Positions 4,448 through 17,559 of a stretch of 64,000 nucleotides of DNA are shown here, in pieces. Numbering within the stretch: position 1 is the stretch's first letter; the number at the start of each line of letters is the position of its first letter. A model generated the notes under the pieces. The model saw only the letters and a program-made list of their open reading frames with translations. It did not search any database and had not been told where the DNA came from. The translations under genes and the position numbers were made by a program. Source of the DNA: a virus; the IMG/VR virus record IMGVR_UViG_3300003323_000790, positions 1 through 64,000 of that record, one strand, 5' to 3'.

Positions 4448-4621
4448 ATGAAACGCCGCACCTCCAAGGCCGAGCTGAAGCGACGGGCCAAAAACGTCGG
4501 CATCCCTGACCACCTGCTTGCACAGGCACAAGCTGTGCAGGCCGGCCACGCGCCAGCCAAGCCCAAGCTCTCACCCTTGGCCTTGAGTGTGGCCTCTTAC
4601 CTGAAAGGAAAGAAAGCATGA
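4448..4621 (+). CDS. small basic protein (57 aa, not in ORF track)
   Basis: MKRRTSKAELKRRAK...; ATGA overlap with 4618. Confidence 0.5.
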   Translation: MKRRTSKAELKRRAKNVGIPDHLLAQAQAVQAGHAPAKPKLSPLALSVASYLKGKKA

Positions 4622-4848
4622 GCAAAGAACTCAATCGACCCTCTGTATCTCCTGCCGTACTGAAGGCCGTCGAGGCAGCATGGGCAGACCAAGCAAAGAA
4701 TCTTCCAGGTCCGCACAGTCCCGTCTATCGAAAGGCCGAAGCGACTTTCTTCAGCGGCGCAATCGCAGCCTTTGAAGCACAGGGCATGAGCCTAAACACC
4801 AGCTGGGTGCTCAAGATCCTGTCGAGCCAGAACGTAGTATCTGCTTGA
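4618..4848 (+). CDS. hypothetical protein
   Basis: 76-aa ORF, AAAGGA SD. Confidence 0.65.
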   Translation: MSKELNRPSVSPAVLKAVEAAWADQAKNLPGPHSPVYRKAEATFFSGAIAAFEAQGMSLNTSWVLKILSSQNVVSA

Positions 4849-4874
4849 CATGCACTGGTCGGTGGCGAGATACT
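4845..4874 (+). promoter_or_regulatory. sigma70-like promoter
   Basis: TTGACA-N18-GATACT directly upstream of structured RNA element A. Confidence 0.55.
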
Positions 4875-4879
4875 ACGTC

Positions 4880-5031
4880 ATCGGCTGGTAACCGATCCTT
4901 CTGCAGTGTCACATCATAGTTTTCTCTGTCCTCCCTGCTCGCTTTCATGGGAGACGCTTTGTCACTGCCAAGGCGATATCTTGGTCGGCTTTACCACCCG
5001 GCTGTGAGCTGGGAGGCCAGAGAAAATTATG
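4880..5031 (+). ncRNA. structured RNA element, copy A (leader of HNH gene)
   Basis: Long stem 4915-4942/5004-5031; loops TGGTAA (4886) and TTACCA (4991) complementary; GCAGTG (4903)/CACTGC (4963); same architecture as 11474-11636. Confidence 0.75.
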
Positions 5032-5598
5032 TCGATCAATGACTTCAAGTACCGCGACGGTTTATGGGCGTACTCTGCCCGGCTGCCTAACACCAAACGA
5101 GTCACTCTCACCTACGCCGGTAATGCTTGGCATGGAGTACAGGCAAGGTGCCTGCCTCACGCGGCAGGCCCTGCGCCGCGTCAGTGCGGCTTCGCTGATT
5201 TTCAGCAATTTGCTGAGTGGTTCGTGCGGCAGCCCGCCTACAGCTTTCCCGGCGGCGCAGATTTAGATAAAGACCTGCTCTACCAAGGCAATACACTCTA
5301 CTCTCCGGAGACCTGCTTGTTGCTACCTCCAGAGATCAACGGGTTTGTGGTGTATAAGCCACCCGGACAAAAGGGACTCCCGCCCGGCGTATCAAAGCGG
5401 CCAGGACGCAGCTATGAGTCGCGAATTTGTGAATTCCGAGAGCGGCGGTTAGTAGGTAAATTTAAGAGCGCGGAAGCAGCACATGCCGCGTACCGAGAAG
5501 CCAAAATGCAGCGAGCTGCGCAGCTAGTGGCAAAGTACGCAGAGTACCTGCCAGCAGCCGCGATAGAGGCTTTGTTGAACTACCACACGAGAGTCTGA
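5029..5598 (+). CDS. HNH-like homing endonuclease with AP2-like C-terminus
   Basis: FADFQQFAEW...LDKDLL...YSPETC..PPEIN; LPPGV...GKFKSAEAAHAAY; lower GC than neighbours. Confidence 0.8.
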   Translation: MSINDFKYRDGLWAYSARLPNTKRVTLTYAGNAWHGVQARCLPHAAGPAPRQCGFADFQQFAEWFVRQPAYSFPGGADLDKDLLYQGNTLYSPETCLLLPPEINGFVVYKPPGQKGLPPGVSKRPGRSYESRICEFRERRLVGKFKSAEAAHAAYREAKMQRAAQLVAKYAEYLPAAAIEALLNYHTRV

Positions 5599-5642
5599 TT
5601 AGTCTCAGTGAGGGAGCTAATTTTCTTTAAAGGACCCACACC

Positions 5643-8090: not shown

Positions 8091-9191
8091 ATGAATAAGA
8101 AATTACAGTTGGCTGGACTGCGCTTCGGGCGATATCTCGTTATTGAAGAGTATCAGGGGGCAGGGCAGAGCACATACCCTCGCTGGGTGTGTCTCTGCGA
8201 CTGCGGCACATTCCGAGCAGTGTCTGGCTCAGCCTTGCGACGAGGGGGCTCACTTTCTTGTGGATGCGTATCCGCACAGATCCAGAGCATGCGCAAGATC
8301 AAGCACGGACTTTCTCGCAGCCCGGCTTACAACACCTGGCGGAATATGCTCAGCCGCTGCACCGACCCGAGAATTCACAACTACGGTAACTACGGGGGTC
8401 GGGGAATTTCAGTTTGCACTGAGTGGCTAGAATTCGAGAATTTCTACCGTGACATGGGAGACAGGCCGCCGAACATGACGTTAGATCGTATAGATAACGA
8501 CGGCAATTACACGAAGGAGAATTGCCGTTGGGCCAGTCGTAAAGAGCAGTCGTTGAACACTGGTAAGAATCGAAAACTGACGCTTAATGGCGTCACGAAA
8601 ACTGTAACAGAGTGGGCACAAGATCTCGGCATAAGTCGAGGTACGCTGCAGACTAGATTGAAAAACTGGCGTGACGTTGAAGCAATATTGACGACACCAG
8701 CTCACGTCAAAGTACCTCCCGAGCGATCGGGTCGTGTCGTTAAACCTCGTAAGAAACCCACATATAAATGTAACTGCAAAAGGAGCAACACCATGAGCAA
8801 TAACATCTTCCAGTCCCTGAAACAGCACCTGCGTTACGCCTCCATCAAGGGCGAGCTGACCACCGAGCAGCTGTTCGAGCTGCCGCTGCAGTCCAAGTCC
8901 GGCTTCGACCTGGATTCCGTGGCGCGCGGCATCAATACCGAGCTGAAAGCGGCCGGCGAAGAATCGTTCGTCACCGCCGCCAACCCAGCGCGCACCGCGC
9001 TGGCGCTGAAGCTGGACGTGGTGAAAGAAATCATCGCCGATCGCCAAGCAGACAACGAAGCGAAGGCAGCGGCCAGCGCGAACGCCGAACGTCGCGAGCT
9101 GCTGAAAGGCATCCTGGCCGAGAAACAAAACGAAGCGCTCAAGGCCCTGACGCCTGAGCAGATCGCCGAAGAGCTGAAGAAGCTGGGCTAA
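8091..9191 (+). CDS. HNH homing endonuclease, reading in frame into the downstream gene
   Basis: CLCDCG...SCGC, YGGRGI, TLDRIDNDGNY..ENCRWA; no stop before the internal start at 8793. Confidence 0.8.
   Translation: MNKKLQLAGLRFGRYLVIEEYQGAGQSTYPRWVCLCDCGTFRAVSGSALRRGGSLSCGCVSAQIQSMRKIKHGLSRSPAYNTWRNMLSRCTDPRIHNYGNYGGRGISVCTEWLEFENFYRDMGDRPPNMTLDRIDNDGNYTKENCRWASRKEQSLNTGKNRKLTLNGVTKTVTEWAQDLGISRGTLQTRLKNWRDVEAILTTPAHVKVPPERSGRVVKPRKKPTYKCNCKRSNTMSNNIFQSLKQHLRYASIKGELTTEQLFELPLQSKSGFDLDSVARGINTELKAAGEESFVTAANPARTALALKLDVVKEIIADRQADNEAKAAASANAERRELLKGILAEKQNEALKALTPEQIAEELKKLG
8793..9191 (+). CDS. conserved coiled-coil phage protein
   Basis: Own AAAAGGAG SD and ATG; GC-rich codon usage resumes; EQLFELPL motif. 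Confidence 0.8.
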   Translation: MSNNIFQSLKQHLRYASIKGELTTEQLFELPLQSKSGFDLDSVARGINTELKAAGEESFVTAANPARTALALKLDVVKEIIADRQADNEAKAAASANAERRELLKGILAEKQNEALKALTPEQIAEELKKLG

Positions 9192-10771: not shown

Positions 10772-11455
10772 ATGACCGACAAACGTTCCGACCCCGACTA
10801 TCAAGAAGCCGTCAGCAACTTCGTTCGCAATAACGTCGTGTGCTGCGTCAGCGGCCTCTTCTCCGATGTACTCAAGCTGGTGCAGAACGCCAGTCGCGAC
10901 ACCTTGCGGGAGACCTCGTTTGACGAGGAAGAGATGATGGAGCTGTGCGAGCACAAAGACTACGAAGAGGCGGCCCGCCAGCACATCAAGGACATGGATC
11001 GCGACGACCTGATCAGCGCCCTGTCCGACGCCAGCGTGAAAGATGATCGCCCATCCAACGAAATCGGCAACGCCGCTATGGAGCGGCTGATGAAGCAGAT
11101 CGAGGAAGGCGACTGCGATCCGGCCATCGACGGCTCGATCGAAGAAGGCGGCTTTGCGCTGATGAGCGAATGGCCCGGCATCAGCGACGACGATCTGCGC
11201 GACAAGCTGGGAGCAGCGCTGAACGAAGACGACGGCTGGCAGGAGTTCTGCGACGAGCAGGGCGTCGATCCTGAGTACGTCGAAGTCTACGAGCACTGGG
11301 TAGTCGACCGCTGGTTCGCCGCGCGCCTGGCCGAATATGGCGAAATCACCGGCGACTTCGGCGGCCTGACGGTATGGGGCCGCACCTCGACCGGCCAAGC
11401 CATCAGCATGGACTACGTGGTCTGCCGCATCTACGATGACTTGCACAACAGTTGA
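10772..11455 (+). CDS. acidic hypothetical protein
   Basis: AAAGGAG SD; EVYEHWVV...WGRTSTGQAISMD; very D/E-rich. Confidence 0.8.
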   Translation: MTDKRSDPDYQEAVSNFVRNNVVCCVSGLFSDVLKLVQNASRDTLRETSFDEEEMMELCEHKDYEEAARQHIKDMDRDDLISALSDASVKDDRPSNEIGNAAMERLMKQIEEGDCDPAIDGSIEEGGFALMSEWPGISDDDLRDKLGAALNEDDGWQEFCDEQGVDPEYVEVYEHWVVDRWFAARLAEYGEITGDFGGLTVWGRTSTGQAISMDYVVCRIYDDLHNS

Positions 11456-11469
11456 TTCTAGGCTACTCT
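11441..11469 (+). promoter_or_regulatory. sigma70-like promoter
   Basis: TTGCAC-N17-TACTCT upstream of RNA element B. Confidence 0.55.
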
Positions 11470-11473
11470 GTAG

Positions 11474-11636
11474 GAGTCGGCCTAATGAACCGACTCTTCG
11501 AAACGCTTCAAGTAACTCAGCTTCTTTCTGACTTCCAGCCTGTGCTGTAAGGCTGTGCTTCGTCTCGTTTCGCGGAACATATCCTGTCGGCCTCATTACC
11601 CGACGGCAGGCTGGAAGCCAAAAAGGAGTTGAGATG
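11474..11636 (+). ncRNA. structured RNA element, copy B (leader of HNH gene)
   Basis: Long stem 11516-11543/11606-11633 covering AAGGAG; loops TAATGA (11483)/TCATTA (11593); CGAAACG (11499)/CGTTTCG (11566). Confidence 0.75.
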
Positions 11637-12248
11637 CCACACGCCCAGGAAAGACAGAACCGTAGAGGTGCGGTCTGCGTAATCATTCCGGATTTCCGAG
11701 ATCGGGAAGGGAAGTGGGTGCGTACCCATCGAGAGGGTGGTCTTAAAGGTACACAGTATGTGACGGTAGCTGACAAACTCTATCGCAATATGCTGGCTCG
11801 ATGTACGCCAGGCTACAAGACTGCAGCTTACCGAGACTGTAAAAACAAATTCGCTGACTTTCAGGAATTTGCGGAATGGGCGCAGACGCAGGTTGGTTAT
11901 TATCAGCCCGGCTGGCAGCTGGATAAAGACCTGCTATGCCCAGGCAACCGGACCTACTCAAGGGACTTTTGCACATTCCTGCCTCCGGAGGTAAATTTAG
12001 CTTTAGCCAGAGGAAGCAAACCCAACAGCTTGGGAAAGGGTGTCCACCCAAGTGGAGAGAAATACACCGCACAGCTTTCCCACAATGGGCGTCCCCATTA
12101 CATAGGAACATTCAATACAGTGGGTGAGGCCCGAGAAGCCTACGCGCAAGCTAGAAGGAAGAAACTTTCTACCTTAGCGGAGAAGTACAGAGAATCGCTC
12201 GATAGCCGAGCCTACTACGCACTGCTCTGCTTTCCAGCAGAGAGATAA
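11634..12248 (+). CDS. HNH-like homing endonuclease with AP2-like C-terminus
   Basis: FADFQEFAEW...LDKDLL...YSRDFC..PPEVN; YIGTFNTVGEAREAY. Confidence 0.8.
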   Translation: MPHAQERQNRRGAVCVIIPDFRDREGKWVRTHREGGLKGTQYVTVADKLYRNMLARCTPGYKTAAYRDCKNKFADFQEFAEWAQTQVGYYQPGWQLDKDLLCPGNRTYSRDFCTFLPPEVNLALARGSKPNSLGKGVHPSGEKYTAQLSHNGRPHYIGTFNTVGEAREAYAQARRKKLSTLAEKYRESLDSRAYYALLCFPAER

Positions 12249-12266
12249 CTTAGGAGGAAGTGCCCC

Positions 12267-12776
12267 ATGAAATTAGTGTCAGCAGAAACCGGCGATGCCT
12301 ACACCATCGGCATGGTCGTCGAATACCTGCCCGGCCGTCGCGGCCAGCACATCGAGTGGGTGAAGATCGTCGAGATCGACAAGCTGCTCAAGACGGTGAC
12401 CGTGCGCGACTGCAATGGAGGCCTGCTACTCACCTCGCCCGAGCCCTTGGGCCTGGAGTTCCGCAGCACGGCCGCCCAAGCTCGCAAGCTGCTGGCCCAA
12501 GTCGAGGAAGAGCGGAAGGCCATCGTGCAGAAGACATCGCAGGTGGGCAAGACCGAGACGATGTTCTTGGTCGGGCTGCATGCACTCGGCAGCCGGGCTG
12601 CCCACGTGACGCCGACCGAGCTCGACGCCATCTTAGCCGGGCTGCGCCTGCTACAGACGGACTTGCGAGTGTCCGAGAATATCCCGAGCAGCATCCACGA
12701 TATTTTCACCAACAACGGCGCCCACGGCGGCCTGACGATCGAAGAGATCGACGTGCTGTGCGAGAGGCTGAACTGA
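12267..12776 (+). CDS. hypothetical protein
   Basis: GGAGG SD, 169 aa. Confidence 0.7.
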   Translation: MKLVSAETGDAYTIGMVVEYLPGRRGQHIEWVKIVEIDKLLKTVTVRDCNGGLLLTSPEPLGLEFRSTAAQARKLLAQVEEERKAIVQKTSQVGKTETMFLVGLHALGSRAAHVTPTELDAILAGLRLLQTDLRVSENIPSSIHDIFTNNGAHGGLTIEEIDVLCERLN

Positions 12777-16224: not shown

Positions 16225-16601
16225 ACTTCGGACTCGGCCAAGTCGTACTGGTCAAAGAGCTGCAAACCAAGAACGGCTTCGATCGCTTCGCCCAGCGCGG
16301 CACCTTCCGCGCCAATCGCCACCACCTGTCGGCCATGCTGTACCTCGGCGAGGTCAACGCCGACACGCTGCCGCAGTTCAGCCCCAACGGCGCAATGGCC
16401 TCGCTCGGCTACGGCCCGCTGCTGCTGAGCCGCACGCAAGTGTCGCTGTTGGACGTGATCGACAAGCTGCGTGACCGGCTGGCGCAGCAGCAAGAAGTCA
16501 GCGACGAGGATCAGGCTCTGATCGACCTGGCCGACGGCGCCATCGCCGCCTGCGCCGCATTCACCACCGCGGCCGCGCCGCAGAAAGGAGTGAAACCATG
16601 A
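16221..16601 (+). CDS. hypothetical protein
   Basis: AAAGGA SD, coupled. Confidence 0.65.
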   Translation: MNFGLGQVVLVKELQTKNGFDRFAQRGTFRANRHHLSAMLYLGEVNADTLPQFSPNGAMASLGYGPLLLSRTQVSLLDVIDKLRDRLAQQQEVSDEDQALIDLADGAIAACAAFTTAAAPQKGVKP

Positions 16602-16954
16602 CAGCCAAGGAGTGGTGGAGCTGGGTGCACCCAATCGACAAGTGGCTGCTCTGCAGTTACGGTGCGAGCCTTGCGATATCAGCTCTGGCCGGCAACTGGT
16701 GGCCTATCTTCGGCTTGCAGCTGGCTACCGCCTTGGCGTACAGCCTGTATGTAATGGAGCGTGTGCGCGCCGACCGACTGCATGCCCTCAATAAAATGCT
16801 GGCCCAGTGCCTGGAAGAATGCGGTGAGGCCGGCATCGACTGGCAGCGCCGCAGCGAGGCTTTCGAGCAGAGCCTCAAGGAAGGGGCCGACGCCATCGGC
16901 GTCGCCAATTTGATCATCCACGGCCGTGGCCCACGGCCAGACAGAAAGGAGTGA
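16598..16954 (+). CDS. membrane protein
   Basis: Two N-terminal hydrophobic helices. Confidence 0.65.
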   Translation: MTAKEWWSWVHPIDKWLLCSYGASLAISALAGNWWPIFGLQLATALAYSLYVMERVRADRLHALNKMLAQCLEECGEAGIDWQRRSEAFEQSLKEGADAIGVANLIIHGRGPRPDRKE

Positions 16955-17559
16955 AGATGAATATCGTCCCGGACACATGGGACTCAGAAGGGAACTGGGT
17001 TAGGAGCTATTACGTGGGCGGTCAGCGCTATACAACCAAGGCAGACGTCGTCTGGAAGAACATACTGGCTCGCTGTATCCCTGGCGGCCCGTACCAGACA
17101 AGGGTGCCGAGCTATGTGGGCTGCACCAACGGCTTCGCAGATTTCCAGGAATTCGCTTCCTGGGCGACCTTGGCAGTCGGGTACGGCCGAGAGCACTGGG
17201 TCATTGACAAAGATCTGTTGGCTGGTGGCCGAGGTAAAGTCTACTCGGCCGAGGTATGTCTTTTCATCCCGAGGGAGATCAATTCTTTCCTGACGAACGC
17301 TGCCGCAGTACGTGGAGATTTGCCCGTCGGTGTGGTGCGCGACACAGGTAAATGGGGCAGAACTGGTTACATGGCGCAGTTGCAAGATGGCACGCGGCGG
17401 AGAACTTTAGGGCGCTTCCACACAGCTAAAGATGCCTTTTCCGCCTACAAAGAAGCCAAAGAGGCTCGCGCGCGACAGCTTGCAGACCACTACGCGCCAA
17501 GCCTTGACGCCCGAGCTGTACAAGCTTTGCGAGATTTTCGCGTCCACTTCGACGCATAA
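16951..17559 (+). CDS. HNH-like homing endonuclease with AP2-like C-terminus
   Basis: FADFQEFASW...IDKDLL...YSAEVCLFIPREIN; LPVGV...LGRFHTAKDAFSAY; paralogue of 5029 and 11634 but without the RNA leader. Confidence 0.8.
   Translation: MKMNIVPDTWDSEGNWVRSYYVGGQRYTTKADVVWKNILARCIPGGPYQTRVPSYVGCTNGFADFQEFASWATLAVGYGREHWVIDKDLLAGGRGKVYSAEVCLFIPREINSFLTNAAAVRGDLPVGVVRDTGKWGRTGYMAQLQDGTRRRTLGRFHTAKDAFSAYKEAKEARARQLADHYAPSLDARAVQALRDFRVHFDA

Follow-up and report, generated by a model that had tools for sequence, protein, structure and literature searches.

The virus record IMGVR_UViG_3300003323_000790 carries two genes for homing-endonuclease-like proteins whose ribosome-binding site (RBS) is occluded by a real, structurally conserved and unusually elaborate 5′ leader. 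The record comprises 80,992 bases and is complete according to CheckV; the window, that is, the whole stretch of DNA that was analysed, is its first 64 kb (positions 1 to 64,000). The leader is about 155 bases long and occurs in two diverged copies, A (4880-5031) and B (11476-11636), within the intergenic stretches 4849-5028 and 11456-11633 directly upstream of two paralogous open reading frames (ORFs), ORF A and ORF B. We estimate a probability of about 0.5 that it forms the 5′ untranslated leader of a dedicated nuclease-gene transcript and acts in cis as a two-state translation gate, closed in its stable fold and open in an early, transient one. Homing endonucleases are needed in small, well-timed amounts, and in our model the leader most likely limits the amount of nuclease.

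An original prediction, made from the DNA letters of the window, had described copy A as a pseudoknotted RNA motif tied to HNH-AP2 endonuclease genes, and each element that it named is present in that copy. On the plus strand, both copies follow the same order, with a hairpin (P1), a segment a and a long stem (P2, 25-28 bp) that encloses hairpin P3, segment a′ and hairpins P4 and P5. In copy A, P1 (4880-4896; ATCGG[CTGGTAA]CCGAT, 5 bp, loop L1 CUGGUAA) is followed by the linker CCUUCU and segment a (together 4897-4908; a is GCAGUG, 4903-4908), the P2 5′ arm (4915-4942), the inner domain (4943-5003) and the P2 3′ arm (5004-5031). The inner domain contains the weak hairpin P3 (4943-4952), the conserved GCUUUGU (4956-4962), a′ (CACTGC, 4963-4968), P4 (around 4968-4984; CCAAG[GCGATAT]CTTGG, with a loop ending in AUAU) and P5 (4984-5002; GTCGG[CTTTACCAC]CCGGC, loop L5 4989-4997). 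P3 had been announced as a tetraloop hairpin; it is there, but with only a U-A and two U-G pairs. In copy B, the corresponding elements are P1 (11473-11497; core 11476-11494, extendable to 8 bp, loop L1 CCUAAUGAA), the linker and segment a (11495-11505; a is CGAAACG, 11499-11505), the P2 5′ arm (11516-11543), the inner domain (11544-11605), with P3 and its GUAA loop (11544-11553), GCUUCGU (11557-11563), a′ (CGTTTCG, 11566-11572), P4 (11574-11584) and P5 (11586-11604, loop L5 11591-11599), and the P2 3′ arm (11606-11636). The conserved unpaired bases are GCUUYGU and the AUAU at the loop end. The inner fold of copy A is ambiguous, as the minimum free energy (MFE) structure prefers CGCUUUG/CAAGGCG over the hairpins given here, and an inner hairpin of this type does not keep its place with respect to the conserved flanks, being out of register by one position from A to B.

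In both copies the Shine-Dalgarno (SD) sequence lies inside P2, at a different height in the stem. Copy A has GGGAGG at 5011-5016 and the ATG start codon at 5029-5031, both within P2, in agreement with the claim that a long stem buries the SD and the AUG; the GGAGG proposed as SD is, as a caveat, 12 nucleotides (nt) from the ATG. In copy B, AAGGAG is located at 11623-11628 and the start codon at 11634-11636. An SD or start in the 3′ arm of a stable hairpin, the feature of T4-type hairpins, is therefore present in A and B in the form of P2. The stem contributes -41.8 (A) and -38.5 (B) kcal/mol, with -17 to -20 in its A/U-rich lower half, and its duplex is interrupted by nothing more than single-base bulges or mismatches in either copy. 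Between A and B, 8 of the 23 P2 pairs compared have changed on both sides and 3 on a single side, and copy B lacks the pairing at 2.

The complete leader has an MFE of -61.3 kcal/mol in A (z -3.83) and -70.8 kcal/mol in B (z -5.86), and none of 200 shuffles was as stable for either copy. The two copies, aligned with MAFFT, are identical in 77 of 161 columns (48%) and are in register for P1, P2, P3 and P5, the same helices that RNAalifold recovered independently from the alignment. Pairing was retained in 97.3% of 74 alignment cells (72/74), with both-side changes in 11 of 37 pairs, which none of 500 shuffles equalled; when the partners were slid by 1-3 columns, 33-53% were paired, with 0-2 double changes. 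The loop-loop contact L1-L5 is UGGUAA/UUACCA in A and UAAUGA/UCAUUA in B, compensatory at 3 of 6 positions, and a-a′ is GCAGUG/CACUGC in A against CGAAACG/CGUUUCG in B, compensatory at 5 of 6. A 6-bp Watson-Crick run between L1 and L5 arose by chance in 63 (A) and 14 (B) of 20000 loop shuffles, and the a-a′ run in 221 (A) and 132 (B) of 20000. The original prediction was accurate on these contacts: both are exact in copy A (in DNA letters, TGGTAA/TTACCA and GCAGTG/CACTGC), and copy B has the same order with different sequences that keep both (TAATGA/TCATTA and CGAAACG/CGTTTCG).

The evidence for a second state comes from folding the nascent RNA without the P2 3′ arm (4880-5003 in A, 11473-11605 in B). 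The MFE structure was then the same nested five-block helix in both copies, helix E, with 25 bp in A and 26 bp in B. Helix E joins the first ~30 nt of the leader to the ~40 nt just before the SD strand, through the blocks P1-5′/P5-3′, L1/L5, P1-3′/P5-5′, linker/P4-5′ and a/a′; in copy A, P1 forms its 5′ part, the linker pairs with 4970-4973 and segment a with 4963-4968. According to this folding model, the two long-range pairings are two blocks of one continuous nested helix that competes with P1, P4 and P5. The pseudoknot originally proposed thus stands as regards its two pairings, which are real and covary, but its topology is not necessarily that of a static pseudoknot, since both are parts of this competing helix. 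The P1 and P5 stems share the same sequence (UCGG/CCGR) in both copies, which makes a strand swap into helix E possible. The duplex energy of the two domains joined in helix E is -27.8 (A) and -29.2 (B) kcal/mol, reached by 2/1000 and 0/1000 dinucleotide shuffles, respectively. In the linker-P4 block one of four pairs has changed on both sides. Bases 4971-4973 (A) and 11574-11576 (B) have each retained two partners, since they can pair with the 3′ strand of P4 as well as with the linker upstream; there is one both-side change in each pairing, and such dual pairing is what a switch predicts. When prefixes of the leader were folded, helix E persisted until the 3′ end reached 5019 in A or 11613 in B (13 nt short of the SD), and P2 was found afterwards. 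The open state has -37.0 (A) and -41.4 (B) kcal/mol, against -63.5 and -70.8 for the closed state, a gap of 26-29 kcal/mol.

A gate built on these two folds would work as follows. In the stable state, P2 pairs the SD region, together with the AUG in A, with the upstream strand, P1, P4 and P5 stand as hairpins, and ribosome loading would be blocked because the SD region is paired. P1 and segment a can, however, pair in successive blocks with a′, P5 and the 5′ half of P4. Both sides of helix E are made earlier in transcription than the SD strand, so helix E is predicted to fold first in the nascent RNA, probably nucleated by the L1-L5 loop kiss and a-a′. The SD would then emerge unpaired, since helix E loops out the anti-SD strand (the P2 5′ arm), and ribosome loading would be confined to the interval before relaxation into the much more stable P2 state. 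The expected outcome is a low, pulse-like yield of nuclease per transcript. We infer the folding order, how long the open state lasts and how translation is affected. Among the functions that had been proposed for the motif, a translational switch is the best supported. A hard steric exclusion of a-a′ by full P2 was also considered and rejected, as the linker lengths do not sustain it.

Several observations weigh against this gate. The leader was found nowhere else, so that the evidence rests on two sequences from one genome of one uncultured phage; covariation is therefore intra-genome only, statistics of the R-scape type are impossible, and the weight of the case is limited accordingly. The blocks of helix E that derive from the P1 and P5 stems are nearly invariant and do not covary, which could instead reflect sequence-specific recognition, and the first base of copy A (A4880) pairs in P1, not in helix E. 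The nascent fold has a modest z (-1.99 in A, with 9/200 shuffles as stable; -3.02 in B, with 1/200). In copy B the MFE structure is already P2 at 3′ end 11617, before the SD at 11623-11628, so only a kinetic trap would leave this copy open, and the barrier on the direct nested refolding path, 34.5 (A) and 30.1 (B) kcal/mol, is an upper limit, because pseudoknotted intermediates lie outside the nested energy model. The reverse strand of copy B is nearly as stable as the forward one (-69.0 vs -70.8). A pairing of 5-6 bp between the anti-SD strand and an internal SD-like decoy has different registers in A and B and, by our estimate, does not go beyond chance. A static fold that combines P2, the kiss and a-a′ is possible but not needed.

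Such a static pseudoknot, in which P2, the L1-L5 kiss and a-a′ coexist as a compact domain able to bind a ligand or a protein (the nuclease in autoregulation, for instance) or simply to lock the RBS, is the reading closest to the motif as first described, and we consider it unlikely. Both long-range pairings covary, each contact is shorter than one helical turn, and a geometric estimate indicates that the linkers from a to the base of P2, of 6 nt (A) and 10 nt (B), may just allow docking if stretched; simultaneous formation of the long-range pairings and P2 is possible at most. The conserved unpaired GCUUYGU and AUAU loop end suggest tertiary contacts or recognition, as would P1 and P5 stems that are conserved in sequence and do not covary. 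Yet a static domain accounts neither for the identical sequence of the P1 and P5 stems nor for the pairing, seen in A and B alike, between the linker and the 5′ half of P4. Together the two contacts provide a duplex energy of -12.6 in A and -9.8 in B, little compared with P2; Rfam gave no match to a riboswitch or aptamer family, and the gene suggests no ligand. In a variant that joins both ideas, the leader would be a true sensor or partner RNA. GCUUYGU and the AUAU loop, together with the junction and the 5′ domain in its docked form, would create a small-molecule pocket or a surface to which a protein of phage or host, possibly the nuclease, attaches, and binding would choose between helix E and P2. 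We hold this to be improbable; if true, nuclease synthesis would be licensed only under a particular infection condition, and no riboswitch-like or autoregulatory RNA switch devoted to a homing endonuclease would have been described before this leader.

The conserved stems might alternatively be signals in DNA. The P1 and P5 palindromes (GTCGG-N9-CCGAC in B), with the longer inverted repeat, would then be protein sites, for example for the endonuclease acting as autorepressor at its own promoter; operator binding by I-TevI is a precedent in the accessible text of PMC2988022. P1 is located at the predicted transcription start, its sequence and that of P5 are conserved, and because P5 is an inverted near-copy of P1, paralog-specific recognition could mimic the loop covariation. 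This would still leave without explanation P2, its 8 compensatory pairs and the way it tracks the RBS, as well as the interleaved order of the two repeat sets. The sense-strand helices carry G-U pairs, the plus strand folds better than the minus strand, clearly in A, and outside the leaders the window shows no excess of TCGG-N7-9-CCGA (8 occurrences, of which the leaders account for 3, against 4.6 expected). Taken with these points, a DNA-level role appears distinctly improbable. Terminal repeats like those of miniature inverted-repeat transposable elements were rejected as an origin of the copies, which are only 48% identical and have a P2 that extends across the border of the repeat. The idea that the leader contains a conserved upstream ORF was rejected too, the ATGs being at non-homologous places in A and B.

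The TTGACA promoter originally placed before copy A was recovered as TTGACA-18-GATACT (4845-4874, plus strand), with 10/12 matches and 0.3 expected in shuffles; the stop codon of the upstream ORF (4846-4848) sits within its -35 hexamer. It ends 5-6 nt before P1, and a weaker candidate, TTGCAC-17-TACTCT (11441-11469, plus strand), read by eye and below the scan threshold, occupies the same relative place in copy B. The spacer of the copy A promoter (4852-4866, plus strand) holds GCACTGGTCGG, which resembles a′ and the P5 5′ strand (CACTGC ... GGTCGG), and in the MFE structure of an RNA starting further upstream this region pairs with segment a and P1. Read-through transcripts could be held closed by this repeat, which may be a chance occurrence since no equivalent was seen in copy B.

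These promoter positions bear on a known mode of control. RBS occlusion is an established restraint on phage homing endonucleases, and in the RBS hairpins of I-TevI, I-TevII, I-TevIII, segB and Aeh1 mobE, as far as the accessible text of PMC2988022 describes them, the SD is in the 3′ arm and a late promoter gives transcripts without the 5′ arm. Were the same true here, P2 would silence the full transcripts, and an unrecognised internal late promoter would provide the translated ones. An RBS in the 3′ arm of a stable hairpin is indeed present, but no sigma-70-like site was found within either leader, and the sole site found is upstream of the whole structure. The candidate late-promoter spacer GCAA-N6-TG is in neither leader and is not enriched in the window (34 found vs 49.8 expected), and the 5′ domain would have no role. 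Control by promoter choice seems very improbable for this leader. The 5′ domain and the covarying long-range pairings would likewise be left without a role if P2 were a processing or stability element, cut by host RNase III to free the RBS or to destroy the mRNA. The stem is, with its 25-28 near-regular bp in both copies, of a size suitable for this enzyme, as with the lambda N leader and T7 early mRNAs; even so, we regard this role as quite unlikely.

The original prediction had also considered the motif new, and the Infernal search against Rfam that it had proposed as a check agrees with this. Rfam 15 gave no match at gathering score in the whole window, and when the leaders were searched with permissive filters and E up to 10, only microRNA and small nucleolar RNA models appeared, the best with 24.5 bits against a cut-off of 84 and 16.1 against 70. 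Neither leader matched the known self-cleaving ribozymes or GIR1 at this threshold. A group I intron is not indicated either, as there is no Rfam match and each flanking ORF has its own start and stop; from the stop of the ORF to the next ORF start the distance is only 44 nt in A and 18 nt in B, which leaves no room for a 3′ intron half. Membership in HEARO/OMEGA is contradicted by the lack of an Rfam match and by proteins of 189 and 204 amino acids in which Pfam detects only a sub-threshold AP2. A self-cleaving ribozyme, or a guide or scaffold RNA working with the nuclease in the manner of HEARO/OMEGA, both suggested at first, therefore lost ground and are extremely unlikely. What speaks for them is the complexity of the fold, its position upstream of a nuclease gene and the precedent of GIR1, a ribozyme upstream of a homing endonuclease ORF in eukaryotic twin-ribozyme introns (accessible text of PMC2219692). 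On the other side, no ribozyme, GIR1, group I or HEARO model matched even at E up to 10, the proteins are small, lack RuvC/IscB features and have an AP2-like DNA-binding part of their own at the end, the RNA is absent from a third paralog and, by model R1, from the loci of 26 relatives, and the buried RBS points to a role in cis.

Searches for further copies suggest that the leader is confined to this phage within the sets covered. In its own record of 80,992 bases, model R1 detected no copies besides A and B; its one further match, at 32 bits, was to the reverse strand of B. No credible match was obtained at the loci of 26 protein relatives (16 viral, two of which were scanned twice, 3 from metagenomes or genomes, 2 more that include the nearest tree neighbour of protein B, and 5 from GenBank phages), where the best score was 14.7 bits (E 0.81). 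R1 likewise found nothing at 54 loci around relatives of neighbouring genes (6 for ORF 10772-11455 and 48 for a 692-aa neighbour gene), in 20 whole records, or in a sample of 151 Pseudomonadaceae genomes searched with stricter filters, which may not be the host's group. With blastn (words of 11), both leaders retrieved only chance pieces of 19-32 nt from 50,697 phage records. Exact patterns made from the bases identical in A and B, which detect near relatives only, gave at least 118 viral stretches for the first pattern, with none adjoining a protein relative among the matches listed; 3 viral stretches for the second, none confirmed by R1; and none in metagenome contigs for the third. No RNA sequencing run was listed as containing the sequence; one soil-metagenome DNA run contained 11% of the sampled words and yielded a single identical contig of 195 nt, corresponding to 4561-4755 and ending short of the leader. 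The arrangement of the relatives' genes also differs. Among the 19 loci with a measurable gap, 15 genes start at most 23 nt from the upstream ORF (by heuristic start codons), and the remaining 4 have gaps of 75-305 nt with no comparable fold; at the 5 GenBank loci the gene overlaps the upstream coding sequence or follows within 61 nt. No described equivalent was found in the literature, where a related model may nevertheless exist in the catalogue of PMC10690425, which by its accessible text draws 8,495 candidate structured RNAs from IMG/VR and requires no fewer than 3 unique regions for each. The control exerted would be of a known kind, RBS occlusion, and what appears to be new is the leader itself, absent from Rfam and found only in this phage.

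The genes that follow the leaders are ORF A (5029-5598, plus strand), encoding a 189-aa protein that is HNH-like by PHROG and has a weak AP2-like C-terminal part, and its paralog ORF B (11634-12248, plus strand; 204 aa, 36% identity). A third paralog, C (16957-17559, plus strand; 200 aa), is 41% identical to the ORF B protein and has no leader. Its start follows a GGAG and its start region overlaps the stop of the upstream ORF (16598-16954), to which it is translationally coupled, so that one phage has two different expression modes, leader and coupling, for one gene family. The tie between the RNA motif and this type of gene accordingly holds for two of three paralogs in this phage, but for none of the 26 family loci elsewhere. 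As for the label HNH-AP2 endonuclease, the proteins of the two leader genes match PHROG 953 ‘HNH endonuclease’ (E 1e-37 and 2e-41), but Pfam HNH models gave no match among the three window paralogs and 11 family members, and the conserved block of the family, LDKDLL..GN..YS...C.F.P.E.N, has no invariant histidine (family alignment A7). Pfam AP2 matched protein B only (E 3.7e-5, 24.4 bits, below the cut-off of 33.3) and, at E up to 0.1, 5 of the 11 family members; the family profile matched plant AP2/ERF structures with E 0.002-0.07. The label is thus reasonable but unproven, HNH support coming from PHROG alone, and the proteins are best described as homing-endonuclease-like, with putative nuclease activity.

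The family is large, with 10,577 cluster representatives at E up to 0.001, and the closest relatives of proteins A and B have at most 36% and 42% identity. Its tree is star-shaped; A, B and C do not group together, and B pairs with P0043, a protein whose gene has an upstream region of 94 nt that is AT-rich and without the leader fold. The two cassettes of leader and ORF (4800-5600 and 11400-12300) have a G+C content of about 50-59%, against 60-70% in the surrounding genes, a difference compatible with horizontal acquisition of mobile cassettes, leader included. The cassette borders could not be defined by synteny with the nearest phage found, in which one protein is 60% identical. Another endonuclease-like gene in the window, ORF 8091-9191 (plus strand, 366 aa), resembles a fusion: residues 1-250 match the HNH/restriction-endonuclease PHROGs 374, 3377 and 8790, residues 237-365 match phrog_2018, and residues 210-366 are homologous to a gene that directly follows the phrog_1735 homolog in six related phages. 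Either a backbone gene has gained an endonuclease gene, joined in frame, at its 5′ end, or the backbone start is internal.

If the gate exists, the leader would be a self-contained two-state RNA whose first 30 nt act as a built-in antisense that decides whether the occluding stem forms. The known phage solution is a simple RBS hairpin with promoter choice, and the leader would show a different one, in which the logic of MS2 maturation and toxin mRNAs is added to RBS-hairpin control in a mobile gene of a double-stranded DNA phage. It would also be a compact natural example of bases that keep two alternative partners through compensatory change, of use for studies of co-transcriptional folding, and a source for the design of orthogonal RNA switches, as A and B use different, non-cross-pairing loop and a/a′ sequences.

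Among known systems, the T-even hairpins described in the accessible text of PMC2988022 likewise precede a phage homing endonuclease ORF as stable RNA structures with the SD in their 3′ arm. They are single hairpins, whereas here a 30-nt 5′ domain with covarying long-range pairings is added, the only promoter-like site is upstream of the whole ~155-nt structure, and there is no sequence homology. HEARO and OMEGA RNAs are pseudoknotted structured RNAs encoded just upstream of a nuclease gene, and their partners IscB and IsrB are RuvC-like proteins, with or without HNH, of about 350-500 amino acids. The leader resembles them as a structured RNA with pseudoknot pairings upstream of a nuclease gene, but has no Rfam match, precedes genes for proteins of 189-204 amino acids without a RuvC-type domain and buries the gene's own RBS. 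Riboswitches, such as those for purines, alternate between incompatible folds, of which one covers the RBS, and their multi-helix junction is organised by a loop-loop pairing. Mutually exclusive folds and a loop-loop contact are shared by the leader; in contrast to riboswitches, it shows no aptamer match and no suggested ligand, and its alternative helices share no strand with P2, competing instead through the P1, P4 and P5 hairpins and through topology.

The closest parallels are found where folding itself times translation. In hok-type mRNAs the toxic product is kept untranslated through 5′-3′ or other long-range pairing, with antisense RNA and 3′ processing. In the type I toxin mRNA aapA1 of Helicobacter, structures that exist briefly during transcription block translation or set its timing (accessible text of PMC6733600). 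As in these toxin mRNAs, metastable and long-range folds would hold back the translation of a toxic product, but theirs involve antisense RNA and 3′ processing, and neither such a partner nor a processing site was seen here. In the maturation gene of the Levivirus MS2, the final fold pairs the SD with an upstream strand, and a transient fold, formed earlier and incompatible with it, postpones this pairing and permits brief translation of a low-copy protein (accessible text of PMC4615214). In MS2 the upstream complementary strand is itself part of the trap, a small metastable hairpin, whereas in the leader an early helix of 25-26 bp encloses most of the anti-SD strand and does not pair with it. 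MS2 is an RNA phage and the phage carrying the leader has double-stranded DNA, and as there is no homology, the leader would at most work like the Levivirus gate and not be a member of its kind. The alternation of P2 with helix E, as the energy models predict it, follows the same delayed-folding logic.

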